64,000 nucleotides of DNA, taken from positions 559,998 to 623,997 of the forward strand of contig QPGO01000015.1 in assembly GCA_008632985.1 (NCBI GenBank), in the 5' to 3' direction. The position numbers and the translations under genes were made by a program. The stretch comes from Psammoneis japonica. Taxonomy: Eukaryota. Shown here piece after piece: positions 16,313 to 62,900 of the stretch. The number at the start of each line of letters is the position of its first letter. The stretch's first letter is position 1. The notes beneath the pieces are model-generated. The model ran no database searches and was not told where the DNA came from. It was given only the letters and a program-made list of their open reading frames with translations.

Positions 16313-16622
16313 TTCCAAGAAGCGATAAACAAAGCGAAACAATACAGCTACCAACGCAACCGGTACGGTAGATTGAAGATGCAGGATGAAGGTACGAAAG
16401 TGCGAAGCTTTGCGTGGTGACGACCAAATAATGGCGTCGCAACTCGAAACGTCTCTCGCGCGCCAAAAACGCGGGAATGAACAGAATCAACATGCTGACG
16501 TAGATGGCGAACGCTGACGTGGTAGACGAAGTGGATGCAGAAAAAACAAATCGAAAATGGGCGCACATAGCTACATGCTGTCATTGTTCAATTTGTACCG
16601 GTACGGAGAAGCCCGACACACC

Positions 16623-26693: not shown

Positions 26694-26936
26694 CGTTCGA
26701 TCTCCTTTATTTGTCAATCTGCTCTTAACCTTAACTGTATCTTCATGAATTTATTGCTTATGAAAGTCAATATAAAAATAGAAACATTCAAAAATGTAGG
26801 AAGATAATCCAAATGGAGGTGTGTAATGTTGTGTTGTGTGAATGAGGCGTCGATCGAACCATGATAATCCTGAGTCCGTGAAGTTGAATGTGGCATCATC
26901 TTTCCTACCTAGCTTAATGTGAGTTGTGTGACTGAT

Positions 26937-27939
26937 ATGGCGCTGCTACTACGATATATCTGCCGTGTTCTGTCTTTTCTCGTAATCCTTGTGGTGCTGC
27001 CTTGGTCGGAAAGGTTCACGCGGATTTCGAGCATTGCAGTGGACGAGTCCACAATCGAAGAAGTTAGTCTTGGCTGCGAATGGCAACCACATAATGACAC
27101 GGAATGCATCAATCTCCTTACACGCCGAATATACAAGAATGCTAATTCTTCGGCACCGGTGGCTCTTTTTTGGAGACTCGACAATGTCTCATACATTTGA
27201 GGGCAGTCCTTTGTCTCCAACCGTATTGAGTCAGTTGAAAGCTGAGTGTTGTAAGCTACTGCATGCCGGTACCTGCAATACAGATTCTGTCTTTCGTCTC
27301 GAAAGAACTTCGCAGTGGAACAAACCCAACTTTTCTGCTGGGGAAGGACCAGTCGCTTACGGCTTAGATCATCCATTCTGTCAAGATTGTTCTGGATGCA
27401 ACTCGCGTTTGCTTCTGTGTACTTGTGATGATAGAGGGGGCGGCTACGCCAGTGTGGAGTTTGCCCGGGATGTGGAACTCCAGTCGGTGCAGTATGGCAC
27501 AACACAAGAGAACTAAGGCCTCCCATCTTGCCAACGAATGGAACTCAAATCCCGAACAACATCGGCCGATCTGTGTACTACAAGCCGGGATTCACGACGC
27601 CGCAATCCCAAATATTACGAGTGAAGTCTACTTGGCGAATGTTGAGTGGTATTTACAGATGATGCATTCACAATGTGAACATATAGTCTGGCTCGGTAAT
27701 ACAAGCCCTCAAACAGATGCGAGGCCTCAGAAGAAGAACCGGACACGGGAATGGAATCATGCCATACGCGACAAGATACTTGCCAAACAGTTTCGAGATA
27801 GCAGTTCTTTTGTTGATGTCCATGTTCTTCCACCGGCTTTCACATGACGGATAATATTCACATGGCTGCACCATGGTACAAAAACTTGGGTACAACTTTT
27901 CTCAAAGTCATGAAGTCTTCTCACTATGACATTGAGTAA
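26937..27939 (+). pseudogene. Disrupted SGNH-fold (PC-esterase/TBL-like) gene, copy 1
   Basis: N-terminal TM, WLFFGDSTM, AGIHD and DNIHM motifs. In-frame TAA at 27514-27516 (TGG in copy 2) plus frameshifts. Confidence 0.65.
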
Positions 27940-28199
27940 AAAGGATCAACATGTTGTGGGATTGGTTTGAAATCATTCATGTTGTTTATCGATTTAGTAT
28001 CACTACTGTTGTAACATTGTTCTCCTTTCAATACACTTACTCTGCATCTAGCTCCGCGGCTAGAGCCATGGATTTGTTCCGCCGCTGACGGGACACTATT
28101 CGTTCTTCTACGCCATCGGAAACAACAAACTGTCTCACTCGCATCTTCGACGGCTGTACTAGACAATCATGAATGACTTTTTAAATCGTCATTTTAGAA

Positions 28200-40249: not shown

Positions 40250-42735
40250 GGCTCGCACGATGCGGGTACGATGGCCCACACAAACTTCGAAGGTGGAGTT
40301 CCAGCCGGCAGTGCTGGGAGGTAATGGCCCATATTTTCTGTCCAGTGGGCAAGGTTCCATGGGTGCCAGTGAAGGTGGCTGCACATTGAGCAGCCTCTCC
40401 AAGAATTGGCAGAGCCAGATGCTGGACCAATGTGAAAACCCTTTGTGCAATGATCACTTGGGAGGGTGGGACAGTCATCCAACAGGGTGGTTGCCAGTGC
40501 ATGCCAGGCACAGCTGTTTGGCAGCTTTCGTCAGCAAAGCCTTGAGCTTGAACACCTGGGCCAAGCGGGCATGATAAAGGAGATGGCTGTCATCCATGGA
40601 GAGAACATCTGCAGCTTCAAGTTCATCGCAAAGGGCATCAAAGGCATTGTCAAGTGGGGCCAGAGCATTGTTTGTTGGAGCTGGGAATGACAGGGGTTGA
40701 TTGCTTGGCTGGGATGCAAGCTGTGAGCAATTGAGCTTTGCTCAGAACAAAAGTGCTGAGTGTCCCCACAATTGGCTTTTCTCTCTGTGCACTTGTGTGG
40801 GTGAGCCAGAGAATCACTGGCTCATTTTTGGCAACAGGGGTCAAGAACTTTGAGCACTTGGAATTCTTGACAAAGATGCTCATTCATCACTCGATTGTCA
40901 TCCAGTGCCCAGAGAGGAGTCAGCATCAAAAATGAAGGAAAAGTTGTGTCAAGCAATCAAAAAAGGACTCTGATGTGGCTTCTGGCACAGCACAAAGCAT
41001 CCAGACCATGCCCCAGACTGCAGCACAATCTCCTGGTGCTCATTTGGGTGTGGTGTCAGCTTGCACTGTGATTTTGACACATGCTGCAAGGGGGATTTTG
41101 TCATGGATCTTGATCTCACAAAAGAGGAGAGAGAGAGAATGCACATGGCCAAAGGAGCCAAGAATGGAACAACAGCCTGCTGGCCAGTGCAACTGTCCAC
41201 TCAAGTGCACATTGCTCCTCAGCACAGTGAGCAGGTGCAATCTCTTCCATTGGAGGAGAGAGACCAAGCAATGGTGGCTGTGGAAAAAGAGATTTATGAT
41301 CAAGAAAAGGGCAGTGGTGCTGATGATGTGAAGAAGGCACAGCACCAGATGTGCCAAGCTGCCACCTGCTGTTGCTGCAACTCAAGGAGCAAGACACCCA
41401 GAGTTGACAAAACCAGGCATTGACATCACCTCACATTGGCTTGGTGCAATCTTTGATGAGGCAAGAACAGGTGCCTGTTGGGGTTCCAGAGGTGGTGGCA
41501 CAAGTCAAAGAAAAAAGCGGATGATTGATGATTCGCACGATGTGGGTGCGATGGCTTCGAAGGTCAGTTCCAGCTGGTGCTGGGGGGTGACTGGCCCATT
41601 TTCTGTCCAGTGGGCAAGGTTCCATGGGTGCCAGTGAAGGTGGCTGCACATTGTTGAGCAGCCTCTCCCTTCAAGAATTGGCAGAGCTGGATGCTTTGCC
41701 AATGTGAAACCCTTGACACAACAATCACTTGGCCAGGAGGGTGGTGGGACAGTCGTCGAACAGGGCGGTTGCTGGCGAAGCCTTGAGCTTGAACACCTGG
41801 GCCAAGCTGGCATGATGCAGGAGACAGTTGTCATCCATGGGAGAACACATCTGCAGCTTCAAGTTCATCACAAAGGGTGTCAAAGGCATTGTTGTGTGGG
41901 ATCAGAGCATTGTCTGTTGGAGCTGGGAATGACAGGGGTTGATTGCTTGGCTGGGATGCAAGCTGTTTGCAATCAAGCTTGACTCAGAATGAAGATGCTG
42001 AATGTCCCCACAATTGCTTTTCTGTGCACTTGTGTGGGTGAGCCAGAGAGTCACAAGCTCATTTTTTGGGGCAACATGGGTCAAGAACTTTGAGCACTTG
42101 GAATTCTTGACAAAGATGCTCATCCCTTGATTGTTGTCTGGAGAGGAGCCAGCATCCAAAATGAAGGACAACTTATGTCAAGCAATCAAAAAAGGACTCT
42201 GATGTGGCTTCTGGTGCAGCACAAAGCACCCAGACTGTGCCTCAGACTGTGGCACAATCTCCTGCTCATTTGGGTGTGGTGTCAGCTTGCACTGTGATTT
42301 TGACACACATTGCAAGGGGGACTTCATCATGGCTCTTGATCTCACAAGAGAGAGAGAGAGGAAGCACATGGCCAAAGAAGCCAAGAAAAGAGTGACAACC
42401 TGCTGGCCAGTGCAGCTGTCCACTCAAGCACACATTGCTCCTCAGCACAGTGAGCAGGTGCAATCTCTTCTGCTGGAGGAGAGAGACCAAGCAATGGCAG
42501 CTGTGGAAGAAGAGATGGATGATCAAGAAAAGGGTGGTGGCACTGATGATGTGGAGAGGGCACAGCACCAAAGGTGCCAAGCCACCACACCTGCTGTTGC
42601 AACTCAAGGAGCAAGACACCCAGAGTTGACAAAACCAGGTGTCGACATCACCTCACATTGGCTTGGTGCAATCTTTGATGAGGCAAGAACAGGTGCCTGG
42701 TGGGGTTCCAGAGGTGGTGGCACAAGTCAATGAAA
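40250..42735. repeat. Diverged tandem duplication, unit about 1.2 kb
   Basis: gtcaagcaatcaaaaaaggactctgatgtggcttctgg at 40948 and 42177; gacatcacctcacattggcttggtgcaatc at about 41422 and 42644. Confidence 0.9.
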
Positions 42736-45700
42736 AAAAGATGTTTCACACCAGAGAGTGATGCTGACATTTGTGGCCTGAATCAGGAAGTGCGTGAGAG
42801 GAGACTTCTTGTTGTTCTGAGTGCCAACAATGACAAATCCAAAATGCAGTCCTCAAGAAGATTGTTGTGGCTGTTGGTGGGACAACCTTGAGAAAGAGTG
42901 CAAAGCATTTTGTGGTCAAGTTTGCCATGAGATTCATGTCCAAGGACAGACTGTTGTGCCAGCATTCTTTGCCAGTGTGAAGATTTTTGAGTTTGTGTGT
43001 TCAGACACATGGAGCTTGACAAATCACTGAAGAGCCTGGGCAGCTGACATCAAAGTTGTGTGTGCATGTGTGCAATGCCTCCTCAGCCTAAATGGGGCAA
43101 TTGCTGACCCACCCCCCAGTGTAAACTGGGCTGCTGGCACAGGTCTTTCAAGATGTGCCAATGTTCCTTGGAGCCTTCCACCAGCATTGACACTGACAAC
43201 TTGCTTCTTTCTCTGTTCTTGGTGTCATCAGCTTCCTTGCTGAACCCATCTTCTTTCTTGGCAGTGTGACATTCTTGCCACAGGAGATGTTTTTGCCACC
43301 TCAACCACACACTCACAAACCAATTGCAACAATCTTGAAGCACCTCTCTTTCATCCTGATGGATGAGCAGCAACTGCTTCCAAGCCTTGACTGCCTGGAC
43401 ATGCAGGTTTGTCTTCTCATTTGCATTGAACAAGATTGGCTTGAGAGCTTCCAGCAGTGCCACCATGCCCCACTCCTCTGTGACTCTCATGAACTCTCTG
43501 TCACTCCTTCAATCTCATGACCAATGACCTTTGAACATTGTCCCACAATTGTGCTGAAGAGTGCCTTCACCTTCTTCATCTTGCAGGTCACATTTTGTTT
43601 TGCAAAGTGAGTGCATTGCTTGCCCTAAATTCCCTTGTCCTTTTCTGAGGCAGTGTCTCTCAACAGACAATCTGCTGGCTCCTTTGGCATGCTCTCCTGC
43701 CCCAGAGACACTGGCACCTGTGTCTCTAGCCCAAACATTCTTCCAAAACACTTGCTGATCTTCCTCATGGTCTCTGTGTCATGCACCCACTCCTTTTTGA
43801 ATCTTTCATGCTTCTGCACTCAGCTGTGTCCTTGCCCACATTTTCCAGGACTCAAGTTGGAGTTTCACAGCTTGCCAACAGTCGTGTGCTCAGTCTCACT
43901 GACCCCAACACAACCTTGCTGCATCCTCTTTCAGCAGACCCTTGACAGCTTCTTTGATGGCAAGGCCCTCCAGAGATTGTTTCTTTGCCCTTGTCCAGCC
44001 AGCTTGCTTGCCACAATTCACTGACATGACAAGATGTGCCTTGGGACTCATGTTGACTTCCCAGCCTTTTCCTTTGAATTCTTGATGACTTCCCAGCCTT
44101 TGAATGACACCACTTCTTTGAGTGTCATTCCACGACTTTTCAGCTTCTGTGTTGGAGTTTCATGGCTTGCTGACCAGCACATGCTCAGTCTCCCTGACAC
44201 CAAAGTCACCATGTGGCTTGACTGCAAACACACCCCTGATGCCACCAACCGACTGTTGCTGTGTCAACCAGGTGCAGAAGCCAAAAAGTGAGCACAAGAC
44301 CTGAAACCCAAACCAAGTTGCAAGTGCAAATTCACCATGTTGTCCACAATCATCAGCACATCTTACACTGCAACTTTGTCTGTCCTGTGAACACTGCTCC
44401 AAAACCCCAATGTTCCAACAAAATGGTGCAGGCAACCAACTTAAAGGCTCGACACAAGAGCAAATTTTCAATGGCACAACTGATTTGAAAGCAGCAGCAA
44501 ATGTTGCAACACTTGGTTTGGCCACTGGAAAAAAATGATGAAATGACATGCAACATTTTTGTTCAAACTCAAGATGTGTGCCAGCAAAGTTTTGAAGGAC
44601 CTTCTCAATTTTCATGCATCATGTGCAGCACCTGGACTGCCTGCCTGCCATGATGGTGCCAGTGCCAGTGTGCACTTCTGCTGCACAATCATGTGTGTGC
44701 ACACAAGACCAGGGCTCTGCATGTCTGTGGGCCGTGCCCCCCAGAAGGGCTGCTTGTTTTGATGACATGTGAGAGCCTTGGAAACAGACATGAATTTGCT
44801 CTCCCCATGTGTTCACCACACAGCTTGTGTGCCAGGCAGTGAAAATGAGCTGTTTTCATGGCAACTCACTCAGCCAGCAGACATGCTCCAGCTCCAAGTG
44901 GGACCTGCCTCACTCTGCTGAACTGTGACATCAGAGTTTTTTTTCATGTGCCCCCCCCCGCAGAGTTTTTTTCATGTGCCCCTGCATGTCATGCACTTGC
45001 AATGCACATGCTTTTTTCCACAAAATTTGTTTCATGTTCTCTGTTTTGCAAAGCCACAGGCTTTTTGGTTGTGTCCATTTGTGAGAGGCAGCAAAGATCA
45101 AGAATGAAAGAGGAGATGCAATCTTACAAAATTGCCTCTTTTTCTGTTGGCGATCATCCATGCATTCATTGCCCACCAATGCACTTGCTGTGGAGCTTGT
45201 GCACAAAATTGCATGGGCCCAATGCAATGGGCAGTCTCACCCATGGCTGGAACATGCCAGCAGTGACTCTAAATGTGCACATTGTTTTTGACTTGCACCT
45301 CTTGCACGTGGCACACACATGCCTGCACAGTCTAACATCCATGCACTGTGTGCTCACATGAGATGATGCTTCCTCTGGCAAGTGACATGTGTTCACAAAG
45401 AAAGGCGCAAGTGTCATTTTGTTGAGGCCACAGATCACAGGAGAGTGCTGCTTCCACATCAATTTTTCTTTGTTGCCATTTTGTGCCACCTTTTTGCCCC
45501 ACAAAAAACTGCCAAATGGCCCTGTTGAATCTCTTCTGTTGGCCCCACTGTGGCCCACAATGCCAGTTTGATTTAATGGCAAAATGATGCAGGTGCTCTC
45601 ACGCTGATCCCAAGTGCATGCAACACAATTTTCCAGAGCTGTTGCCTTGTGCAAAACAGTGCTGCTCAAGGTGCAACTCTGACCTGGGATCAAACACCTC

Positions 45701-47500
45701 TCAGCTCTGTTCCAGCTCTGCCATGAGACACACTTGAGCATCCTAACATGAGCAGCACAAGTCATTGGCCAGCACAGAAAGCTCATTGTGACTCCAAAAA
45801 TTGGCCAGGTTGCATGGTTGCACCTGTTTGTCCCAACAACATGTGGCATCTTGCACCTCAGATTCTGCTTTGCTGGATCAAGAAGGTGCTCAATCACCTC
45901 CATCTGAGTCATGAACATGCTGGAAAAACTTCTGGATTTTGCAATGAAGTGTTTGCAAGTCCTCAGCACAACCATCCCCTCCAACACTTGTTGGCTGTGA
46001 ACAAATGACTGGGCAATTGTCCCTCCAGATGATGGTTGCAAATGGGATGAACTGACAGCCACACTGCCCCCCCCCCTGCAAAGAATGTTGTCCCCCACTT
46101 TTAAGCCCTTGCTTTTCAAGACTTTCCCAACCTTGCAAGTTAAAAATGCACTTTCTTGTTTCAATGCCTTGGCTCCTTTGACAAATGGCAGTTGGTCCTC
46201 CTCCATGAGCTGCTCCAACAATGGCACTTGCAGCTCAGTGTCCTGGTGGAAATGTTCCCCAGGATTGGAGAATCTTTGCTGCCTTTTGAAGCACTCATGT
46301 GCAGCAAGCACCAGAGCATGCTTTTCATCAGAGTTGAACCCCATTTTGTTTTGCTCCAGCACCCATTTGTGCATCATCCAATCAGTGGCAGCTTTTGATG
46401 CACCTCAAGTGTGAGCATGAGGATCTGCAAGTGGATTTGCCCCTTTGTTCTTGACCTTGGATGGGGTCAATGTATTTGCAACATTGTGAATGTCACACAA
46501 CAGTCTTCTCTCTGGAGTCTCAAGTTTTAAATTGTTTGTCTCAGCAAGAGCAGCCCACCTGGCAGTGGAGTCCTTGGACCTGTTCATCCACCCCCTCTCC
46601 TTTGGTCATCCTTGTCCAAGGTGCTCCAGCGCTGGGTGCTTCTTCCTGACCCCACTCATCACTCAATCTTTTTGCCTTTGGAAGCAGACCTGCAGCACCT
46701 TTTGGTCTTTGTTGTGCTTCTGTTGCTGCTGTTTTTCCACCATGATGCCATGAAGTCAAGCCCATGTGTTGTGTTGTGTCGTCAAAGTTGGCAGTCATTG
46801 AGCTTTGTTTGCTGAATGCCAACAAGTGCTCACAGACAACAATGCTGGAGAGAGTTGACTTGATGTGACACCAATGCTGGCTCTGTTGCTCACATGGCAC
46901 AAATGACATCAACAGCTCTTGTGTTGACATCAAGTGATCAGACAGACCCAGCTCTTCCTGTTGGGCAATCTCCCATGCAGCACTCTGGCACAACCTGCAC
47001 CAATCATGCACAACCTGTGCAAACACTTGGTTTCAGTTCAGGAGGGTCCATGGTGTGAAAGTGTTGGGGTTGGAGGAAACAAGTGCTGCAGAGCTGCTGG
47101 CCATTGTTGTTGTTGGTGTGTGTGGTGTGTTGTGATGTTGTGCTGATGGTGGCTGCTTTTTGTGGAATTTCCATCCAAGCTGATCACAAACAGACAAAAA
47201 ACTTCAACTTGCAAACCTGGCAGGATGAACCAACCCCAGCTGACAACCCAAAAAGGGAACACTGTGGTGGTTTGGAGCTGTCTCCAGCAAAGCCTGATTC
47301 AAAGAAACCAAGAGCAGAGACTCAAGCCCTGGCGGTGCTTCACAGCACAAAAACATGAGATTCCAAGAAAGCAAGCAAGAAGACATTTTGCAATTTCACC
47401 TTGATGTCAACTTGTCAAACTCTTGGTTGCTCACATTGCAAAATTGACCCTGCTTGTGGTTCAAGTGACAGGAAGTTGGGTGAAAAGCCCGGGAAACTCA
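42735..47500. mobile_element. Decayed repeat-derived DNA, TpA/CpG-depleted, family unresolved
   Basis: Same dinucleotide signature; includes a 403-aa ORF (45166-46377) with no Tyr. Confidence 0.5.
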
Positions 47501-47579
47501 CAACCTCTCTCCAAGGACCAGCCTTCTGCTGTCAAAAATTTGTCAATTTATCAGCAACTCACCCACCCCTGATGTCAAC

Positions 47580-50500
47580 AATGAAGGAGACAAAAACAAG
47601 GCCAATGCCAAAGCCAACAAGCAAGGAAAAAACTGCATCCAACAATCAAGAGAAAGATTTGATGAGGGAAAAGATGGCAAGGAGGTCAGTGCTGTTGCCT
47701 CAAGCAAGAAAAAGAGCACAGGAGGAGAGCCATTGCAACCCATCCAGTGATTTCAAATCAGATGCTGAGTGCACCATTTTCAAGGTGCGTGGCAAAACAC
47801 ATCACCTTGATGATGGCACTCATTTGGGTGGTGGTGGCATGTTGGATGACAAAATTTGGCAGTGACGCTGGTGCCGGCTGACAATGCCCTGCCTGTCACA
47901 GCAGCGCAATGTTCCAAATGGTTCTGCACAAAAACAACTCATTGCAATGCCAGCAGAGCTGCCACATGGAGTCAAGACAAGGAAGTGGAGTTTGAAGGGG
48001 TTGTGGTGTTCCAGATTGTTGTGGTTTTGCAATGTGGTCACAACACAAAGGGAGCCAAGGACATGTGTGAACCCTTCTCACAAGGCACATCATGGATGAC
48101 TGAGATGTGGAGAAACACAAGATGCTTGTCTGGTCCATGGAATGACTGCTTGCCAGTGATCCAAAATTCATTCAGAAGGATGAGATGCCAGAGCAGCAAG
48201 CCAGGACATTCAAATGAATGGCACTGTGAGGAAACCTGCTTGTTGCCACAGTGTGGTGCACTTCAGAGCATGAAAAAGGTGGAGAGCTTGCGCCACATGA
48301 CATTGATGAGAAGACCAAAAGGACACCATGTTTGAGGTTCTAAAGTGAAAACACCCAAACTCAAGGATTCTGGAAGAAGATCATTTTCACATGTTTGACA
48401 AGCTGTCCAAATTCCAAGATGTTGTTGTCACTGACAGGAGTGCTGTTGAGACCTTTGTGCAGAAACTGCCAGGGTCAGGGAGTGTGGGGCTTGCCAGCTT
48501 GGGGGGTCAGACACCAGTGCAGTGCCCAGTGGCTGCTGCATCATGAAAAAGATGGTGGGTTGCTTGGGACATGTGCACATTTGCAAATTGGCCAGCAAAT
48601 GAATCTCCTTCTCAGGCAGCCTGCTGGGCACTCATGGCAAAGCAACCACTCACACTGGACAAAAATCCGGGCATTCAGCATTGGCAAGAATTGACAAGCC
48701 ATGGTCACAGCTCACAGCTGTTTTTTGTTGCCAGAGCAGAGGTCAAAGAGGCTTGTGGCACACAGGTCAGCTGTGCATGGGATTGGAAGCAAGAGCCAAA
48801 AGTGGAGTTTGCATGATGAACTTGCTCTGGGAGCAACACAAGTTTGAAAACAACCACAATTTTCCACTCACCAGTTTTCCACCCACCAATGCCTCCAGCA
48901 GCTTCAACAAGCACAGTGGGATCTTGATCATGTGCAATGCAAGGCAATTCTGGTGATCTGGAGCAAGATTTGCCTTCAACTGCTGTGCATGCATGGGAGC
49001 ATCCCAATCATCTGCAGCCACTCCTGTGGCATGGTTGCCATCCCTTTCAGCAGGAGAGGGTGTCACTCAAGGCAGTCCACTCAGTGTGGCAACACATGGG
49101 CTGGGACTTCTTCCATTGGCATGCAAATTGAGTGAGCAGCTTGCCAGTGCATTCACCTTGTGGCACACAGACAACTCTGCAGCAACAGGCAAGTTCAAAG
49201 TTCTCTGAGAGTTCTTTTTGACCCTGTGTGCTGTCGGACCACAAAGCACGGGGGCTGCCCTGCCAAAGACTCACTCCAAGAACATCCCAGCAGCTCCAGA
49301 GCACATTCTGGACAATGCAAAGAGTTTTTTTGGAGACCTTGGAATCACTGTCACTGCAGGCAACCACCGCCTTGGAGGCTTTGTTGGCAAGAAGGCAGCT
49401 TTTGACACATGGACAGCAATGAAATCCAAGGCATGACATGCAGTCATCCAGGGTCCAGCCAAAATGGCAATTCACCACCTGCAGACCACTTGTGCAGGTC
49501 TTCAAAAGTCCCTGCAGTGCAAGTGGCAATGCATCCAATGTGCAGCAAAGGGCTGTGGCGAGTCATTCCCCAATGCAGAAGATGTGATTGCATTCCAGTT
49601 CCTCCCAGAGAGCCAATTGCCAAGACCTCAGCTAAAGACAACAACCCAAAATTTGCCACCTCGCCCACACTTCCAACCAATTTGCAGGACTGTCCATCCC
49701 TCATCCAGTGGAGTCAATGAAGCAAAACTTTGAAGAGAGTGCTCTCAGCACTCACTTTGCTGTTGCTCCAAAAAGTTCTTCTCAGTGATGGTCTTCACAA
49801 GGACATGATTCAAGATGAGAATCGGGAACCAGCTGAAAGGAAAGCCAAGTTGCATGAGGAAAAATTTAAAATTTGTCTCCGTCCTCCACCCAATGAGATG
49901 GCCCAAGCATCAAGGTGTGGCGCCAATGCCAGTTCACAGCTGTCAGCACCCCCATTTTTGCCAAATGAAGCAGAGCTGGTCATCTTCTTTTGCCAAGAGT
50001 TCCAAGATGCCCCACATGTGCAATGTGGCCATGAGCCTCCAGACCAACTCAAAACATGTGATGGGTCATGTGATTGTAAATGTTCTGTCCAACATTCCCT
50101 TCAATGCAAGAAGGGCAGCCCAGTGATCTCATGACATGTTGAGGTGCATGATGAGTTTAGCAACTTGTTGACCAAGGCTGCCAACCAAGCCATCAGCTGC
50201 TCATCATGAACCAGCCATCAACCCTGGTCACACCATCAGAAAAGTCCTTCAGCCAATGGCAAATCTTGCAGTTTGGTCTGCAAGCACCTGCAAATGGAGA
50301 CCATGGAGACACTCTGCAATGAGGCTGGTGGGAATGCATGACAGCCAGACACCATGTTCTTTGACATCAGAGTTGCCAGTGTGGGTGCCAATCCTCCCCA
50401 CCTTTCCAAGACTCCAGAACATGCCCTGTTGGACCACAAGAAGGAGAACAAGTGTGAGTGTCTCAAGCCATGCCTTGAGAGCAGCATTGTCACTTCACCC

Positions 50501-50850
50501 CCTCTTCACAGTGTCATGCCATGAGTTGTTGGGCAAGGAAGCCAAAGCACCAGCCCTCTGGTGGGCTTTGTCAAAGCTTTCAGACTGATGGCAGAAGCCA
50601 CACTAGATTCGTCAATGCCAGAATGAGCATGGCAACATTGAGGGCTGCTCACCATTCTGTCCAAGAGGCTCAAGAATCCCCTGATCCCAGATCATCCTGC
50701 CAGAGGCACCCTCTCTCTGGGAGGGCAGTGCTGGTCCATCCTTGTGCAGGCACCAGTCTGCTTCCTGCACCAGTTGGCAACATGGCATCGAGGCTCAGCC
50801 TTGACACACCCAAGATCAAGGATGCAACCAAATGTCATCCCCCAAGACCC
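47580..50850 (+). mobile_element. Decayed non-LTR retrotransposon (RT plus C-terminal zinc knuckle/restriction-like endonuclease, CRE-like)
   Basis: LDKNPGI, EVKEACGT-QLC, EGVTQGSPLS, WHTDN (inferred WYADD, 49161-49175), HRLGGFVG, AGLQKSLQCKWQ, CDG..C..SVQHSLQCKKG and RFVNARMSMATLRAAH, in several frames. Confidence 0.85.
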
Positions 50851-52099
50851 CCAACACCACAGGGCTTCAGTTTAAAATGTTGGTGGTGCCAGAGGCAGAT
50901 CACTCAAATTTTCATGTGCAGCACTCAAAACGTCACTCATGCAAGACCCAATTTCTGCATTTGCACATGAAATTAACTGTGCAAATCCACTTTTTGCTTG
51001 TGACTTTCAGGAGGAAGCAATGTCTTGTGATGTCCTTGCTTGTGCACATGAACTGCATTTTGGTTCATGTGCACTTCAGGGTGTGTGCACCCTGCACAAA
51101 ATGCTGCACAGATTTGTGCCAAGTGAATCTGCGCGCAACTCCAGTGCAGTGGACAGCTGTTTTCATGTGTGTCTGACACAAAAGCTGCATGTTTGCACCA
51201 CTTGAAACTTGTCCACTGAGCCAGCAGTCATTTGCTGGCCATTGTGAAAAACATTTTGTCTCTGAGAAAGAGCATGTTGAGGCCAGCAAACAACACACCC
51301 CATGATGCAACTGGTGGAAAATCTGCACAAATGCACAGAAACCAGCATGTGGCTTCTGTGCAAAGCAGAGCTTGAAAAAATGAGCAGGGGCATTGAACAT
51401 TTGATGATGGATTCAAACATCTCACTTGCACCGAAGCCCCAAACTGCTTCAAAAATGCAGCATGCTCCACAGTGCTGCCAGCATGACAGCAATCTTTCAT
51501 GCTGCACAGTCATTGCACAGAAACCATGTGTGGACCAGCACTGAGAAAAACTCAAAATTGACTTTCCATCTTCTGCAGTGAATTTTGTTTCCATCAAAAA
51601 TGGAGAACACTTGCAACTGATCAGGTGCATTTTAGATCAACACATTTGCAACAATGGAGGTGGTCAGCAAAGCACTGCAGCAACTTCTTTGTTGGGGCAA
51701 ATGCCGCCACAACTTTCCTTGCAAAAAACAAATCTGCAGTGCCAGATCAAACACAAGAAACCACACAGCAATGTGTGACAGAGGCAGGAAGACTGTTCAC
51801 CAATCACACCACTGCTTCAAAAGTTCAGAGGCAAGAAGAAGAACATGAGGTCACAAAGTGTCTCAGTGTTGATTGCTTCCCTGGAGGTGTTTGAAGCTAA
51901 AGGCCCTCCTCATCTGTTGTCTCAGAGGGACATTTCCAGTCTTTGCACCCAGTCCTCTTCATTCCATGTTCAATGCACTTGCACAGCTGCAACAAAAAAT
52001 GAAATTTTTGTGAGATGTGTGCATTTTGAGAGACACAAGTTTAAAACTTGGTTGACATTGCATCGAGCCAGAGCATTGTGGGAGAAAAAGAACAGATGA

Positions 52100-52865
52100 G
52101 AATGCCACAAAATTCAGCATCACTGAAAAAGAGGGTGCACACAGAAGATTGGCAGGTGGAAGGCTGGAGTTGGAGGAGAATTGGGAGCAACCTGCACCAC
52201 ACATGAAGAACAAATGAAGTTAAATTGCAGGATTCTGTGCTGATGCTGCAGTTCCTGCGGGGTTGTTCTGGGTGCTGCAGGATTCACACGGGGCTCCATT
52301 GAAACAAGAATGGAGGGGTTGGTCAATTTGGGCTGGAGTTCATTGAGTGCACAGGTGAATCCAATGGAGCCACAAAGGACCTGCACTGCCCCTCCTCTGA
52401 TGCAACCATGAAGCAGTGGAATGAGCTGCCAACTCCCTTTGAGCATTCTGAGAAGAAGAATCCACAGAAGGGTGAGTGCTGGGTGTGCAAGCTGTGCAAT
52501 GATCCTGCAGATCCAGACAGTTCCATGCACAAGCTGAGTTTGCCACACTTTCCTGTGGGAATGTGAGAGAAGTGGACACTCTTCAAGCACAACTCAGGCA
52601 CTGAGCCTGGGGTTGATGTCATGCTCGTGACACTCACAGAAGAAATCAGATGTCAGGAGGATGTGATCATCAAGGATGGAATCCACAAGAATCACATTGT
52701 TCATGACATGGCAGCAATGACAGTTGCCAAATTCATCAAAGAGGTTGGACACGGCATCACACCATTTCTTGGCATCTGTGAACTGGTGGTCAAGCACAGA
52801 TGGGTCCCAGGTGTCATCACCGGGGAGAACCACACAGGGCAGATCATCCCTTTTTTGTTGCAGGT
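52100..52865 (-). mobile_element. Inverted fragment of a Ty1/copia (CoDi-like) pol, pre-integrase/integrase region
   Basis: LPCVVLPGDDTWDPSVLDHQF...WCDA...FDEFGNC resembles the CoDi LPHVVLT.D..WDPSVLD...FDEFGNY segment. QNPA remnant near 52230. Confidence 0.6.
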
Positions 52866-52869
52866 GTGA

Positions 52870-55260
52870 GGATGCATGGCAGACTGCTGCACCCATCATC
52901 AACTCCTGCCATGACTCTGAGGACTTGCTGGATTCACCAGATGGGGAGGAGATTGGGATGCCCAAGATGCCAGTCTTCAACCCCAAGGACATCATTGGAT
53001 GCACCTTCCTCATGAAGCCACAAGAGGATGGACAGTGCCACAGAGCCAGCATTGTCAAGGCCATTGAGGACCAGCATGATTGGGAAATTGGTGACAACCT
53101 GGAACTCATCAAGTTCATTTGTTCAGTTGACAATGATGAACACAAGGAAATCCTTGCCTGCAGTGACATCATCCATCACATGGAGCAAGAAGACAAGGAC
53201 GCCTTTGTTCAGAAATTCTGATGCAGCATTGTCTCACATGAAAGACCATTGAGACCTCACGATCCCTCTTGGAAAGACTCAAGCCACAATGTCATGCTTG
53301 AGTGGGAGAGCAGGGAGATTGCATCTGAACCTCTTGGCATCATTGTCAAGGATGACCCTGTCACTTGTGCCATCTGCGCATGCAAGCACAGTCTGCTCAA
53401 AACCAACAGATAAAAATGCTTCCTTGCCACAGCTCTGTTTCAGAAGAAGCTGTTTGCATGGTCAATCAAGCCAAGCTGCACTTGTTTCATGCTGTGCCAC
53501 ACTGCAAGTGTGGGCATGAAAGTGCCCCAGGACTGCAAGCATGCTTTGGCCCTTGACAAGTGGTGCAATGGCAACTGCAAGTGGGGAGATGCAGTGGATC
53601 TTGAGATGTCTCAGCTTGGTGAGCACAAGGTCTTCCATGATTGTGGACACTGCAAGGACTCCAGCACCCCAGCAGGACACAAGAAGAGATTCAGGTGCAC
53701 CTCGTCTGTGATGTCAAACATGATGGCGGGCACAAAGCATGACTTGTTGCTGATGGACACCTCATGGACATGCCCATCAACAGTGTCTGCTCTGGAGCAG
53801 TGTCCCCCTTGGCCTCTGACTGATGATCTTCCTGGCCAAACTCAATGAGCTAGAGACATGGGCGACCAGCATGGGCAATGCCCACCTTGAAGCCACAACA
53901 AAGGAGAAACTGCTGCACATTGTTGCAGGCCCTGAATTTGGAGAATTGGAAGGACACATCCTTGTCATCCACAAGGCTCTGTGTGGCCTCTGCAGCTCCA
54001 GCCTCAGGTGGCATGGGCATTTTGCTGATTGTCTGTGAGCTGAAGGATTCTTCTTGTGCCATGCTGAACCCAACATCTGGTTGCACCAGAATGGCAACCA
54101 TTGTGAACATGTGGCAGTGTGTGGATGACCTGTCCTTCACCATGAAAGATTCTCAGGCCTTCAGTGACACTCTCACAGAGAAGTGCAAGTTCAAACTCAA
54201 AGGCACTGGACCACTGCAATTTCACCTGTCACAACTTCTCTCATGACTCCAATGGCACACTGTGCCTTGCTCCTTGCAAGTGCATTGAACGCATGGTCGA
54301 AAATTGCACACGCCTCTTTGGGGAGAAGCCTTGTGCTGGTGTGCCATCCCCTCTTGAAAAGGAAGACCACCATGAGCTTGACACCTCCAAACTGCTCTTC
54401 TTGATGGCATCCATCAATTTCAGTCATTGGTTGGTTCCCTGCATTGGGCTGTGTTGCTCAGTTGCATCAACACCACTGCAGCCATCATGTCTTTCTCTAG
54501 TTTGCACACAGCCTGTGGATGCTTGTCCAAGATGCAATGTGGTGCCCTGTGTGTGCACACTGAGGAACATGACTGTTTGGACCTCCCCAAGCCTGTGCAT
54601 GATTGGGCTCAAACCATGAGTGGTGATGTGGAAGAACTGCTTCCAAAATGCATGCCCGGGCCTCTTGGCAAGTTCGTCACCATGACCCATGGTGTTGATG
54701 CAAGCTTTTCGCTGGATGTTCCATGACAGGTGCATCATTCATTTCCTCAACAAGTTTGCAGCTGATTGGTTCTCCAAGAAACAAGCCACAGTCAAGACTG
54801 CAACTTGTGGATCTGAGTTTGTTGCTGCCAGGATGTCTGTTGAACAGATCATTGATCTGCACATCACATGGCATTGCCTCATCATCCTGATCTGTGACAC
54901 CTCTGTTGCATGTTTGGGGACAACAAGTCAGTTGTGGACAGTGCTGCCATCCCACACTCCAAGTCAACACAAACAACACACTGCCCTCTCATTCCATCAT
55001 GTGCACGAGGCAATGGCCTCTGGTTTCCTCAAGTTCCACTTTGATGAAGGTTCTTCCCGCAACCCCGCTGACATCCTCAGCAAACACTGGGGTTGCTCCC
55101 AGGTTTGGAACCTCTTCCATCCTCTCATGTTTTGGAACTTCAATCCCAAGGCCTTTTTAGCCAATCTGACTTTGAACCCATCTCTGTGGACTCCTCAAAC
55201 AAACTTGGGAGTGACAGGATTTGAACAAGATTTTTGTTTGTCGCGCACAACTGTGTGTGC
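52870..55260 (+). mobile_element. Decayed Ty1/copia (CoDi-like) LTR retrotransposon: post-integrase linker, RT, RNase H and PPT
   Basis: IIGCTFL..PQEDGQ, DDPVTCA, GNAHLEA...AGPEFGELEG...KALCGLCSS, CVDDL (54118), WFSKKQATVKTATCGSEFVAAR and NPADILSKHWG. PPT-like GGGAG followed by TGACAG at about 55207-55217. Confidence 0.92.
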
Positions 55261-55379
55261 TGTGATTTGATTTTAAGGCACTCAACTGACAAGAATGACA
55301 ACAGCAGTGCTGACATCATGACACCAGTCTTTTGGCTCCTGCCATGGTCTCTGCACAGAGACTCATGTGCCATTTGGAC

Positions 55380-55700
55380 AGCAGCAAGGAGTCATTGTTT
55401 TTCTTCCACCCATTTTCTCTTAAATTTCTGTCAGAGCATGAGCTCCAGGGACAAAGTGTTGCTGAAGGACTGGCAAAGTTCTTGCTTGTGCGCAGGCTTC
55501 TTGAGGGCAATGCTCTGACAACATTGAAGAACACTGCTGATTGCCAAGCCACCAAAGCCAATGTCACCTTCAAAGCCTGCACAGAGAAAATGATGCAAAG
55601 CTTCTTCCCATGCAGGTTGGTGCTGCTGCAGAGGCATTGTCTGCCATGGTGCTTCGCACACAAGCCCGCTGATGTCAAGACTCATGAGAGTGTGCTGCAG
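55380..55700 (+). mobile_element. Decayed gag-like fragment (probably Ty3/gypsy-type)
   Basis: KFLLVRRLLEGNALTT...FKAC...FFP..LVLLQRHCL...KPADVK resembles diatom LTR gag sequences (recalled pattern, not searched). Confidence 0.5.
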
Positions 55701-56250
55701 ATGCGTTCCAGCCTGGGTGGGACTGCATGTGACATTGGGCCCACAGAATTCACGCGCAAGCTCTGCCACAAAAGCATTGGGTGATGCGTGCACCAACAAT
55801 TGCCAGTGTGGAAAAAGAGGCAATTTTGCAAATGTGCAAGCTCCTCCATGCTTGGAGGGCACAATCTCCAGTTTGCCCGGGTGTGTTGTCCAGACATTGG
55901 AAAATGCCCAGCTGATTTTCACTTGTGTGCAAAGAATGGTCACAAGCATCTCAAGCCTTGTCTTGAGCAATGACATCATTTCATGCCATTTGTCATGTCG
56001 TGCAAGATGATCCACTTAGCAAAAAAGCCAGCCCTGCCAAGACCATGCTCTGCATGATTGCTGCAAAGCCCATGGACAAGTGGCAAATGCCCTGTTCAGA
56101 AGTTTGCAGCTTTGTGAATGTGATGATGAGTGTCACTGCAGTCAGAGCTGCTCATCAATGCATCAGGGGCTCATGCTCCATCTTCACAAATTAGCTCCAG
56201 GTGCCCTCAGTGGGAAGATGGTGCTGGTTTGTCACTCCACAGGCACTGAG
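55700..56250 (+). mobile_element. Second 3' fragment of a CRE-like non-LTR element
   Basis: KWQMPCSEVCSFVNVMMSVTAVRAAHQCIRGS parallels the C-terminus at about 50600-50670. Confidence 0.7.
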
Positions 56251-56803
56251 AAGTGCCATGCAATCTGGATGTCACACACTGGGACAAAGTGCTGAGGCCA
56301 TTTTGCAAGATGCTGTGGACATCTTGTTGTGCGCATGACACAAAAAGCACACAAAAAACACAGCTTCCTCATGTGCAAAACCCAGCTTTCTCCTGTGCAA
56401 GCACCTTGTACATTTTGTTTGGTTTTTGTTGTAGAAACTGTGCCAGCTCTGTGCATGCACATCAGCTGCATGCTTCAGTGCCAATCACAACTTTGATCGC
56501 CAACTGCCAACCGCCAACTTGAGATTGCGCCAACACAAAAAATGACCACAACCATGAAAATCCAAAAAGCAGTCCTGCTCCGAGTGATGCTCAAAGCAGG
56601 ACATTGAGTGCCACACCTGTTCCCAGCTTGGAGACCATTGCTCTAGCATCAATGATTTTGCAGTTGCCGAGTGCAAGTCCAGCTCTGAGGAGCACACCAA
56701 CTCACCCAACAAGACCACTGAGTTGCAATCCTGCACTGAGTGACAAGTCCAGCACACAACTCCAAGCAACAGCCCAGCGCCAAGCTCGAGTCCATGTGCA
56801 GCT

Positions 56804-58325
56804 CCATCACAGCTAAACAACTGCACACTCAATGCAAGCACATTCACAAAATGTGAGCATGAAAAACAGAAGCGTTGCAAAGGCTGACTCATGTTTCTCT
56901 CCTGTTGTTACATTCAAAGTTTGGAATGGACCCTGTCACCCAATCCTGCCCTTGATCTGATGCTGCAGCAACTGTGGAGCCCAACTCACTCCCTGCATCC
57001 AATCCTGCACTAACTCTGAATTGGGCTGGCCCACCTGCTCTGCCTGCTTCCAACCCAAGTCCACAGCCAAATCCTCCTTCTGTGCCAAATCTGATGCCCG
57101 ATCCAAATGCACTGTTGACATTTACAATGCCAAATTTGACAACCAATGCTCCAAGTGGCCTTGCTGATGGATGAAGAAAATGAATGGGAAGAGGACAGTT
57201 GAGGGAATGCCTGCACTTGGATGTGGCTGTCTTCTAGATTTCAATCCCTTGAGTTGGTTGAACCTTGATTCTCTCTTGTCCCAGACAGCTTTGCTCAAAC
57301 AGACAAGGGTCCATTTGTTGGATCCAGCAAGGGAGCACCAACCCCGCACATTTCAACCCAGCATCATTGCCTGCTCTGAATCGGACTTGCCCACCTGCTC
57401 CGCCTCCGTTGCTTCCTCTTGCTTCCCACTTCCTGCTTCCTGCTGCTACTCCCACACCAAATCTGACACTTGATCTGACTCCACTGCCAACATCAGCAAA
57501 TGCTGGCACCAAATCTGATGACCAGTCCTGCACCTGGTCCCACCCCAGCACCATCCCCGCAGCCCATGTCCATCACAGCTAAATGGCTGCACACTCAATG
57601 CAAGCACATTCACAAAATGTGAGCATGAAAAAGAGAAGCGTTGCAAAGGCTGACTCGTGTTTCTCTCCTGTTGTCACATTCAACGTTTGGAATGGACCCC
57701 GTCACCTGATCCCACCCCCGATCTGACGCTGCAGTAACTGCTGAGCCCAACGGACTCCCTGCATCCAATCCCACACTAACTCTGAATTGGGCTACCCACC
57801 TGCTCCACCCACTTCCGACCCAAGTCCGCAGCCTGATCCTCCTCCACCCCAAATCTGACACCCGATCCGAATGCACCGTTGACATTTACAGTGCCAAATT
57901 CGACAACCAATGCTCCAAGTGGTCTTGCGAATGGATGAAAATGAATGGGAAGAGGATAGTCAAGGGAATGCCTGCACTTGGATGCAGCTGTCTTCTAGAT
58001 TTCAATCCCTTGGGTTGGCTGAACCTTGATTCTCTCTCGTCCCAGACAGCTTCGCTCAAACAGACAAGGGTCCATTTGTTGGATCTAGCAAGGGAGCACC
58101 AACCCCGACACATTTCAACCGGCATCATTGCCTGCTCTGAATCAGTCTTGCCCACCTGCTCCGCCTCCGTTGCTTCCTTTTGCTTCCCACTTCCTACTTC
58201 CCACTGCTGCTCCCACACCAAATCCGACACTTGATCCGACTCTACTGCCAACATCGGCAAATGCTGGCACAAAATCCGATGACCAGTCCTGCGCCTGGTC
58301 CACCCCAGCACTGTCCCCGCAGCCT
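56804..58325. repeat. Tandem duplication, unit about 766 bp (56804-57569 and 57570-58325)
   Basis: ccatcacagctaaa...ctgcacactcaatgcaagcacattcacaaaatgtgagcatg begins both copies, which align throughout. Confidence 0.95.
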
Positions 58326-58679
58326 TTGTAATTTCTGTCTTTCACACCAATTGAACTCTACCTCTGGCTCCACCTGCTCCTCCGGCAAGTGCTTCATCAA
58401 GCAGTCCTGCTCCGAGTGCTCCAAGCAGATCAACCGAGTGCAAGAAGCCCTGCCACTGTCTCATTTTTTCCAGATGCACTCTTCCTACACCACCACTGTC
58501 ACCTCCTCCTGCCCTCAATCTAATGGTGAAGCCAAGTTGCACCCAATCCCACTGCATCAAACTCGACGAACTCCATGTTGTGAGACCCTGCAGGTGGAGG
58601 GATGAGGGACATCATCTCATTTCTTGTTGGCAATCTAGCTTGCCATTGTGAGTGTGAGTTTTGTGACTGACATGATAAT

Positions 58680-59814
58680 GCTGCTATGACATCTCTGCCG
58701 TGCTCTGCCTCACCTCATAATCCGGTGTTATTTTGCTCGGAAGGGTTTATGCGGATTTCGAGCGACGGAGTGGGGACCATGATCGAAGTAGGTAGTCTTG
58801 GCTGCGAATGGCAACCATAATGACACGGAATGCATCAATCTCCTTACGCGCCGAATACGAAGAATTCAAATTCTTCGGCATACCGGCAGCATACCGGTGG
58901 CTCTTTTTTGGAGACTCGAATGTATCACACATTGGCGGGCATTCCTTTGTCTCCAACCGTATTGAGCGAGTCAGTCGAAAGCTGAGTGTTGTAGAAGTAA
59001 GCTATGTACTGCGTACCGGTACCTGAAATGCCGGTGGCTCCTTTCTGGAGACTCGACAATGTCTCATACATTTGAGGGCAGTCCTTTGTCTCCAACCGTA
59101 TTGAGTCAGTTGAAAGCTGAGTGCTGTAAGCTACTGCGTACCGGCACCTGCAATACAGATTCCGTCTTTCTTTTCGAAAGAACTTCGCAATGGAACAAAC
59201 CCAACTTTTCTGCTGGGGAAGGACCAGTCGCTTGAGACTTACATCATTTATTCTGTCAAGATTGTTCTGGATGCAACTCGCGTTTGCTTCTGTGTACTTG
59301 TGATGATAGAGGGGGCGGCTACGCCAGTGTGGAGTTTGCCCGGGATGTGGAACTCCAGTCGGTGCAGTATGGCACAACACAAGAGAACTGGGCCTCCCAT
59401 CTTGCCAACGAATGGAACTCAAATCCCGAACAACATCGGCCGATCTGTGTACTACAAGCCGGGATTCACGACGCCGCAATCCCAAATATTACGAATGAAG
59501 TCTACTTGGCGAATGTTGAGTGGTATTTACAGATGATGCATTCACAATGTGAACATATAGTCTGGCTCGGTAATACAAGCCCTCAAACAGATGCGAGGCC
59601 TCAGAAGAAGAACCGGACACAGGAATGGAATCATGCCATACGCGACAAGATACTTGCCAAACAGTTTCGAGATAGCAGTTCTTTTGTTGATGTCCATGCT
59701 GCTTCCACCGGCTTTCACATGGCGGATAATATTCACATGGCTGCACCATGGTACAAAAACTTGGGTACAACTTTTCTCAAAGTCATGAAGTCTTCTCACT
59801 ATGACATTGAGTAA
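58680..59814 (+). pseudogene. SGNH-fold (PC-esterase/TBL-like) gene, copy 2; 5' half disrupted, 3' ORF intact
   Basis: Near-identical to 27150-27940 in its 3' part. The 5' part has indels and a local duplication of the WLFFGDS segment (about 58893-59026 and 59030-59150). Confidence 0.65.
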
Positions 59815-59945
59815 AAAGGATCAACATGTTGTGGGATTGGTTTGAAATCATTCATGTTGTTTACCTATGTATTGACAATACTATTGTAACTTTCAATGCT
59901 GTTACTCTGTGTCTAGCTCCACAGCGGGAAATACTCGTTGTCAGC

Positions 59946-62900
59946 CTAACTAGTCTCCCTCCCAAAAAGTATCTTAAAGTCATCAAGCGTAGGTTGTTGA
60001 GAATTCTCGAGCTCGTCCGCTTCCTGCCTGACGTCACTTAAAATGTCACTAGCCATGGATTTCTTCCTCTTTTGAAGGGCCACTATTCGTTCTTCTACGC
60101 TATCGGAAACAACAAACTTTCTCACTCGTACAACTTCAGCTGTCTGACCAATCCGATGAACGCGATTGACACATTGGTCCTCGACGGCTGTAGGGATTGG
60201 TCAAGAAAAGGGGTCCAGTGTTAGCAAATCTTAAAAGCACCTATTTCGACAACAATGGGAACAAAACAATAATCACATACCTTCATTCCACCACGGATCT
60301 ATGATGAAGACTGACGAAGCGGCGACTAAGTTCAGACCCACGCCCCCAGCTTTCATCGAAACTAGGAGAACGGAACCGATGTTCGACGAAGACTTGCCGT
60401 CCCGCGAATGCGGATTGGAAATGGTATTGAACTCCTCCAGGGCTGCAATGCGCTGCTTAAGATTCATCTTCCCGTCTAAGCGGTTGAATGGGATGTTGTT
60501 CTTCTGCAGTGATGCTTCCAGCAGATTCAAAAATCCGAGAAACTGAGAGAATATGATCACCTTTGATCTGTGGTCACCTCTCCAAATGGCGTGAAGCTCG
60601 TTAATGACCGCGTTCAATTTGGAGCTTTCAGCACCACGAAGTGCATCTTCAAGAGCTTGTCGGGCGCCACCGTTGGCCGGTGCACGTGCTTCCGTCTTGA
60701 CCTGCAAAATACTAGGGTTGGAATTATCCGAGATTAGGTATGTCGTCGTTGTGCGTCCATCGTGAGATGACTTGGACATTGCAACTATTCTGGATGCTCT
60801 GATTGAGCTATTGCAACAAGGGCATTCTCCGTCAGGACAGGAAACCATGATAGCAGCCTTCCGCGTGTCGCTCGTAGTTGGTCGCTCAGTTGGAGATGAT
60901 CGATTACGCAGGACACCCACGAGGCAATCTCTGCAAAAGATATGGGCGCAGGGTGTGATGACTGCATCATTAATCAATGGTCTATCCAGGCAAATCGGAC
61001 ATTCTTCTTCGACGGTGTCTGCGTTCGAGTGAATCGTTTTGCTCAACGCATGGGCCACCTTTGACGTGTAGGCTGACGAAGTACAGTTTTCCTTGTCTCT
61101 TGAAGGATCCGTTGTCTTATTGGCTGACTGTGTCGTATGAAATTTCTCCAACAGACTCTCGAGGAACTTTGGTAGTGATATTAGAACGAACGGCAGCAGA
61201 ATTCGTGTAAGGACATATCGCGAGCTCTCTACACTTCATGACAACTCACGAAGGCGCAACACAACGTACCTCGCCATTAACTGCGTCGACAGTTGGTTTC
61301 GCAGCGGCATCGGGAGACCTACTGGATGACTTTGCAACCGAACTGCCCGGTGGTTGCGAGAATTCTGATTGATCGATTTGTGGTTTCACAGTAAGCGCAA
61401 CATGATCGCACGCCTGTCTTAAACGTTGGAGTAAAGAGAAAATGGCAAACCACGACTTGGTCGCGGTCCCTGATTTGACAAAACCTTCAAACACAGATTG
61501 GGACTTCTCGAGAAGGGAGTTGTAGAAATCTCTTTCAGCCGAAGACAGTGTTACCACCACCGTTTTTGAGTCTACAGGAGGAAGCGTTAATATTGGCTTG
61601 CTTCAGTATCGATCAATAATTACATCATATAGGTTAGATGTACACCACAAGCGTTGCACCTGCGGCTCAGAACAATTACACTCACCCGTCCTTGTTTAAT
61701 GTATCCTTCGTGCGCCTTAGAATGATTGGCGCGAGGAGTCGTCTCACACGATCAACTGCGATCTTCAGGCCAGCACTGCGTTCCGGTTGGATCACGCTGG
61801 TCTCGTGGGACGAAGCATCGCGGCCTGCTTCGGGTTGTGGCTCCAGTTCCTTCGCCATACTACTGATGGCTGCTTTCCAGAATCCCCCTTCACACCAGGG
61901 CTCATGCCTCAGGAATTTAAGTAGTCCGTACACATCTTGAAGTGAGTTCTGGATTGGGGTGCCCGTCACACACCATCTCTTCGTGGCATTCAGAGCACAA
62001 CATGCTTTAGAAACCAATGTGTTTGGGTTTTTGATGCAATGTGCCTCGTCCAGGATAACTGGTGAAACAACAACAACAAAAAAGATTGAGCTCAGAAAGC
62101 CTTCTTCCTCGTGAAAGCAAGCATTTTCTTGGTTGCTACAAACCTCTGTTCCATGTATGCAAAAGAAGGCCCTGTCGTGTCGACTTTCCATTTCCCCCTT
62201 TTCTGGAAGCGAGCTCACCCTGTACCATTCCGTCTTGAGATGGAAACATTCATTGAGTACAAGCATGCACTACAGATAGAACGAACAAAAGTAGTCAACA
62301 ACACTTACAGGTCGTTACGACAACGTCGACACCAGAAGGGATTCCATTGCAAACACTGTCGCCGTAGTGGACACAATGTGATAAGGTGGTCTTTGTTGCT
62401 AGCTCTTCCTCCCATTGAGCTACCAAAGACAAAGGAGCAACCACCAGGGTTGCACCTTGTTCTGGAGAGGCATCGCTCTCTTCCACTTGACAGCCTCCGT
62501 TGGTGTCGTCGGAGTTTGTTGCGACAGCCGCAAATTCCTTGGATTTCAAAATCAACGACATCAACATCACCGTTTTACCCAGCCCCATGGAATCCGAGAG
62601 AATTCCTCCAACGCATTGCTTCGGAGGATTTGGTGCACTGCCTGACGCAACCCCAAGAAGTTCATTAACCTAGTCGTCGGAAACGCAAAATCAATCATTG
62701 AGTCGATAAGTGTGACGAAGGCCATGACAAGGTTGAGCAATAAAAACTTACATAGAACGAGATTGCATCACGCATGCCCTCCTTAGCAAGGAAGCGCCGT
62801 CGCCATAAAGGGTGATTCACGGGATCGGGTTGTCCAGCAACGGTCGTGGATCGTCGGGCGGAAGATTCGGATACAAGAACTGGTCCACACTCGCACGCAA

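Follow-up and report, generated by a model that had tools for sequence, protein, structure and literature searches.

The window, by which we mean the whole 64,000-nucleotide stretch of Psammoneis japonica DNA analyzed here, contains three blocks that are poor in both CG and TA, at about positions 1-2950, 28300-30900, and 40340-58690. Relative to the rest of the window, CG in these blocks is reduced to 0.12 and TA to 0.09, with CA and TG raised to 1.62 and the other dinucleotides ranging from 0.83 to 1.24. The right end of the largest block carries a tandem pair, flanked on one side by a copia relic and on the other by an SGNH-like duplicate and then a RING/SNF2 helicase gene (Table 1). Recognizable content near the pair consists of this relic, for one homologue of which a cluster member bears the Pfam domain RVT_2, together with DNA lacking a homologue, and identified sequence accounts for the lesser part of the block. 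A Pfam search of 12 frames returned matches for three of them (SGNH-like, RING/helicase, and SNF2) and for none of the nine frames within the block. Elsewhere in the window, the gene at 16557-17816 has three named homologues among the 120 listed, all from diatoms (Attheya, Cylindrotheca, and Seminavis), and a near-identical direct repeat (4286-4418 and 4941-5075), starting just past the window's single N at 4940, may represent an assembly join.

Table 1. Features in and around the right-hand depleted block (coordinates are positions in the window).
Feature	Coordinates	Strand	Remarks
Left-edge tandem pair (mirror-image control)	40253..42738	.	Copies 40253-41516 and 41533-42738
Depleted block holding the pair	40340..58690	.	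Core at 0.07 of normal for both CG and TA
Decayed copia-type pol fragment	54233..55267	+	Inside the block; used for the direction of change
Inner copy A	56803..57568	.	7 CG and 6 TA remain; stop codons in all six frames; contig depth 60.9
Outer copy B	57569..58324	.	26 CG and 10 TA remain; stop codons in all six frames; contig depth 58.1
CG-loss step	57569..57639	.	Best change point 57626, no more than about 60 bases from where the copies meet
Single-copy shoulder, pair to block edge	58325..58690	.	5 CG and 7 TA among 85 YR steps; TA change point 58673
SGNH/GDSL-like duplicate outside the block	58653..59920	+	Partner 26918-28055; below the Pfam cut-off; 900-base body not eroded

Self-BLAST recovers the 766-bp tandem pair that an earlier note on this DNA had claimed, with copies at 56803-57564 and 57569-58324 that are 89.6% identical over 763 columns at a period of 766, and all nine of the word pairs quoted there occur in the copies to which they had been assigned. 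Tandem Repeats Finder, with a longest period of 500, did not detect the unit. The duplication is genuine. Contig depth over A and B in run X1 (60.9 and 58.1) matches the full depth of a single locus (56.3 for a 14.7-kb unique contig, as against 106 for a two-copy stretch), records from the same run bridge the upstream flank to A and B to the downstream flank, and 22 background differences separate the copies, whereas none of the nine listed differences between the run and the window is of the background kind. These observations make it highly improbable that two haplotypes were joined head to tail during assembly, although none of the X1 records listed spans the join. The contigs of a second run, X2, cover 11 of 30 bins, with the pair outside them.

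Alignment of A with B yields 755 ungapped columns and 71 differences, of which 61 are transitions. The transitions concentrate in CG, TA, CA, and TG steps (49 in 330 columns, compared with 12 in 425 columns elsewhere; Fisher p = 1.5e-9), the enrichment of CG- and TA-type swaps that had been predicted for the pair. At 12 sites, on which the earlier note is silent, TG in one copy faces CA in the other, which marks a single CG or TA that mutated on one strand in A and on the opposite strand in B; these double hits are not assignable to a CG or a TA origin. At six of them (56947, 57006, 57041, 57045, 57081, and 57441) TG is always in A and CA in B, five lying in a C..C context and B reading CCAC at the remaining one. 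Independent hits should go either way, and the grouping is post hoc; across all double hits, TG in A outnumbers the reverse by 9 to 3, too few to count. The background differences are themselves unevenly spread, with 17 in the first half of the unit (56803-57183) and 5 in the second (57184-57564). Partial gene conversion or clustered changes may account for this unevenness, and the history of the pair is perhaps blurred.

The decayed copia fragment gives the direction of change. At columns conserved among 120 copia homologues, some of them from overlapping frames near frameshifts, the relic retains Tyr at none of 15 positions (now 8 Cys, 2 His, and 5 other residues) and Arg at 1 of 15; most other conserved residues are retained about half the time or more. 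The replacement of Tyr by Cys or His and the disappearance of Arg indicate that the direction is loss of TA and of CG.

The two copies have lost these steps unequally. B is the less mutated overall (22 vs 3 sites, p = 1.6e-4), as had been proposed for the copy nearer the genes, and only CG shows a significant asymmetry, being retained in B alone at 17 sites and in A alone at 1 (binomial p = 1.4e-4), while the corresponding counts for TA are 5 and 2 (p = 0.45). A sixth B-only TA adjoins a gap, and its addition in the step model described below gives p = 0.25 for TA symmetry. Selection on B as a working gene is a very improbable reason for its surviving CG. An open frame of 174 codons does run through B at 57710-58234, and the 766-base unit is rich in Pro, Thr, and Ser in one frame when read by eye, but none of 57 candidates of near length proved homologous to the open frame, stop codons occur in all six frames of B, and the frameshifting indels that separate the copies include five in B and one in A.

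We modeled the history of each step with four types (CG, TA, CA, and TG), borrowing the ancestral shares from the window's normal DNA. Modeled CG loss per step is 1.7-1.9 in A and 0.46-0.64 in B, with a background of ~0.014 per base, and equal CG loss in A and B is rejected (p = 3e-4 to 6e-4). The full fits need almost no CG loss before the duplication (0.03-0.05). A model that leaves B untouched is rejected with p = 1e-7 or p = 4e-4, depending on the assumed background; together with the 12 double hits, this upholds the proposal that both copies mutated independently after the duplication, and action in place on chromosomal DNA is likewise supported. For TA, the pair alone weakly indicates erasure after the duplication (p = 0.035 at a background of 0.014 and p = 0.36 at 0.03).

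Across the right edge of the block, CG and TA follow different profiles. The CG share of normal is 0.07 in the core, 0.09 and 0.24 in the two halves of A, 0.63 and 0.60 in those of B, 0.24 at 58325-58690, and 1.18 outside; the corresponding TA shares are 0.07, 0.28 and 0.15, 0.35 and 0.40, 0.53, and 1.18. For CG, a sharp step (AIC 911.7) is preferred over a logistic curve (913.4), whose width shrinks to zero, and the shoulder falls below B (0.24; p = 0.04), a contrast weakened in so far as the Pro/Thr-rich unit may have started CG-richer than normal DNA. The single TA change point, 58673, lies about 1 kb beyond that for CG at 57626, and TA is best described by two steps (AIC 691.6; levels 0.010, 0.045, and 0.19), followed by a logistic slope ~2.8 kb wide (695.9) and one step (699.7). 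The right edge is thus a ~1-kb shoulder where TA loss continues after heavy CG loss has ended. Each of the remaining four block edges is sharp, its change points for CG and TA being separated by 34 to 239 bases. The left-edge tandem pair, a mirror-image control, retains sites in its outer and inner copies in a ratio of 3 to 0 outside its step and 3 to 5 inside, with 22 double hits, and is symmetric inside the block. Where the second copy of this pair begins, a small CG cluster (41518-41558) survives 1.2 kb within the block; its counterpart in the first copy is the portion beyond the block edge.

The earlier note had read the asymmetry as one chromatin domain fading smoothly toward the genes, with CG and TA change following a single gradient. 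The part of this reading that stands concerns TA, which tapers at the right edge, its share climbing outward (0.28, 0.15, 0.35, 0.40, and 0.53) such that the ~2.8-kb logistic is favored over one step, though not over two; the lighter mutation of B overall (22 vs 3 sites) and the somewhat higher CG in the outer half of A (0.09 to 0.24) point the same way. The part that fails concerns CG, which drops in a sharp step, stays level over B, and is lower again nearer the genes. Moreover, 1 kb separates the CG edge from the TA edge, four of the five edges are sharp, and the left-edge pair is unequal outside its step (3 vs 0) and not inside it (3 vs 5). We therefore regard a single fading gradient as unlikely. 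An alternative is that the zone grew, so that B and the shoulder entered the methylated zone later than A and the copies differ in exposure time, not in intensity. Such growth predicts an identical step pattern, and B has both lost some CG and come to differ from X1 at the CG site 57724, which implies that it is being hit now or was hit lately. Yet growth leaves the CG-poorer shoulder unexplained (p = 0.04), and the recent CG differences within the pair number two in A and one in B among those listed, despite the more than threefold greater CG content of B, counts too few to decide; on balance, we give growth a modest chance. What makes the two copies unequal is, for the most part, ordinary CpG decay with a stepwise boundary.

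Repetition does not explain where the changes fall. In ascomycetes, RIP converts C to T at CpA, making TA from CA, and senses duplication. The block resembles its products in that dense, dinucleotide-specific transitions destroy repeats, and both tandem pairs in the block show the pattern. However, a duplicate that lies outside the blocks (27156-28055 and 59031-59920; 900 bases, 95% identical) is spared, with no enrichment of CG/TA-type changes (12/432 vs 11/457, p = 0.83), which argues that position, not repetition, decides. The single-copy DNA at 58325-58690 is mutated too, the copies of the pair are hit unequally, and TA is here destroyed (CA 1.62 and TA 0.09 of normal), an A:T to G:C change opposite to that of RIP. 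That a RIP-like sensor mutated the pair as a duplicate thus has very little probability. The SGNH/GDSL-like gene copies to which the spared duplicate belongs (26918-28141 and 58653-60128) each directly adjoin an erased block, and both look frameshifted, yet without erosion; the second contains an internal duplication (58891-59029 and 59028-59154).

We characterized the TA change by the flanks of the sites that remain. Surviving TA sits in YTAR 44 times and in RTAY 4 times, compared with 285 and 405 in normal DNA (p = 2e-12). A model of TA loss by 3' base is ahead of one by 5' base by 42 log-likelihood units; the 3' base is the better predictor for the blocks pooled and for all three subsets as well, and the relative loss rates are 0.33 for TAA, 1.0 for TAG, 2.15 for TAC, and 2.17 for TAT. 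The loss is regional and affects both strands, and the A:T to G:C change is limited to TpA: in the blocks, TA stands at 0.09 of normal while AA is at 0.98 and AT at 0.91, Tyr codons have become Cys or His, and no excess of transitions follows A. CG loss, in turn, proceeds to TG and CA on both strands with little flank preference.

The two losses also occur separately. Among 10 related copia loci on metagenome contigs, six have lost CG only, three are intact (two of them on one contig), and one, L002, has lost TA, with a TA O/E of 0.06, a CG O/E of 0.34, and four of its five surviving TA sites in YTAR. The separate change points, taken with the CG-only loci and with L002, which lost more TA than CG, indicate that CG and TA loss are separable processes. 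This bears on the idea that TA loss arises from an error-prone polymerase of the pol eta type that fills repair patches at deaminated methyl-CpG, with no adenine deaminase involved. The idea would fit the sharing of four of five edges by TA and CG loss (within 30-240 bases) and the excess of TA-transversion-like doublets (7, vs 2 for CG). The motif of pol eta is WA, though, which predicts a loss of AA that is absent (0.98 of normal), and isolated transitions are about as frequent after A as after G (3/164 vs 2/167; 11/267 vs 8/231). Six related copia loci lost CG without TA loss, and single transversions are balanced (14 vs 13). We consider a polymerase origin improbable.

Two further observations concern the TA sites. 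Over both tandem pairs (40253-42738 and 56803-58324), TG/AA and TG/GA doublets total 7, doublets of the CG-derived kind 2, and other TG/CA doublets 0. These counts hint weakly that TA sites undergo transversions, such as abasic sites would leave; we set this candidate aside, given that the doublets (7 vs 2) are not matched by the single transversions (14 vs 13). TA-erased copia copies also appear in other public assemblies, namely, locus L002 and proteins P0004, P0008, and P0020. P0008 has Cys or His at all five conserved Tyr columns while retaining Arg at six of seven, and 105 of the 120 copia homologues lack Tyr/Arg change of this kind. Judged from these sequences, such copies in unrelated assemblies suggest that the process is not confined to one genome.

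Comparison of the X1 contigs with the window over 56000-58554 reveals at least nine differences, and all nine of those listed, at 56000, 56349, 56885, 57052, 57448, 57724, 57794, 58550, and 58554, are swaps among CG, TA, CA, and TG, five at CG and four at TA (p about 1.3e-3, with 48% of bases in such steps); coming from contigs only, these counts yield no rate. Of the eight differences in the four in-block X1 records listed, six are among these nine. At the CG sites, X1 has CG where the window has TG or CA four times and the reverse holds once. At the TA sites, the window has TA where X1 has TG twice and the reverse holds twice, three of the four listed being of the TAC/TGC type. The absence of ordinary differences among those listed speaks against the TA sites being new TAs made by ordinary transitions. 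At 56885 and 57724, X1 reads CG where both window copies read TG, which reveals parallel hits hidden among the identical columns of the pair. At 58550 and 58554, a pair of TA sites with a spacing of three bases in X1 has been altered in the window at both sites, on opposite strands. Erasure thus appears to be recent or ongoing at the locus, in keeping with the claim that the pair captures mutations in progress; X1 may, however, be the window's own sample, in which case the differences may instead be alleles.

The closest known counterpart is found in Bigelowiella natans, for which the main text of a recent preprint describes A:T to G:C hypermutation, at TpA only, in integrated NCLDV and virophage DNA, reverse in direction to RIP (Mettrop et al., bioRxiv 10.64898/2026.01.13.699255). 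There, reverse transcriptase and DDE domains are TpA-poor as well, and the process is active now, at about 1000-fold over background, and on in some lines only; an ADAT-like deaminase, with ADAT2/3 as the candidate type, is proposed and unproven (bioRxiv 10.64898/2026.01.13.699255). As described in that text, both systems convert TpA to TpG or CpA on both strands, regionally, in silent DNA of a SAR alga. Unlike B. natans, the host here is a diatom, TA is erased near-completely (0.07 of normal, vs a Rho of 0.45 in the NCLDV region), and the changes fall on a copia relic and on single-copy DNA of host type, as opposed to integrated viral DNA. The block further departs from the published description in its overlaid CG loss, sharp edges, and TAY preference, and the words CpG, diatom, trinucleotide, boundary, and gradient do not occur in the main text of the preprint (bioRxiv 10.64898/2026.01.13.699255). 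Our literature search, mostly outside subscription journals, found no report of TpA hypermutation in a diatom and, on TpA hypermutation at all, the Bigelowiella preprint alone.

The CG component has a simpler precedent. Diatoms have DNMT5 and CG methylation in repeat-rich islands (PMC9998398), and deamination is not mentioned in the passages of that article covered here. As in decay driven by 5-methylcytosine, CG is converted to TG or CA in repeat-rich islands, and if the DNA is methylated, such decay would explain most of the asymmetry between A and B. That process cannot yield the change of TA to TG or CA.

Taking these lines together, we think it likely that decay of methyl-CpG and a separate, position-dependent mutator, which turns TpA into TpG or CpA with a preference for TAY, have both acted on silenced chromosomal DNA, where we infer the methylation, the link to chromatin, the enzyme, and any defense role from the pattern of changes. 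In this scheme, the ancestral unit would have been host-type DNA next to a dead copia element, rich in Pro/Thr/Ser and probably coding at one time, and its tandem duplication would have occurred while most CG steps were still intact. Two processes would then have struck each copy in place. The first, CG to TG or CA, most probably reflects 5-methylcytosine deamination within a transposon island that is methylated, and would have run about three times faster in A because the heavily methylated zone would end near the join. The second, TA to TG or CA, amounts to an A to G change at TpA on either strand, with TAY favored over TAG and TAG over TAA; it spans both copies and ends ~1 kb beyond the CG step, where gene-like sequence is first met. 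Restricted to silenced DNA, its likeliest agent would be a DNA adenine deaminase of the TadA/ADAT type or an equivalent lesion specific to TpA. The natural site of TadA is UACG, and TadA-derived editors favor a pyrimidine on each side, a context preference for which our literature search found no printed source.

We know of no natural enzyme established for large-scale A to G editing of genomic DNA. Diatoms may possess one, and we put forward only tentatively, as somewhat short of an even prospect, that a natural A-to-G DNA editor, active to this day and preferring 5'-TAY, is directed by position to silenced chromosomal domains, acts beyond CG methylation, and erases whatever DNA is located there, host-derived duplicates as well. 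The pair serves as an internal clock, and it reveals CG and TA zones with different edges; the asymmetry within it is mostly ordinary CpG decay, and the striking feature is the TA process, which appears to be active here. With TpA nearly wiped out in a second lineage, under a readable context rule and within sharp edges, and with some sites still differing between sequence sets, both the enzyme and its targeting become testable. If the editor reading is true, the recent differences at this locus would mean that the process can be caught at work in culture.
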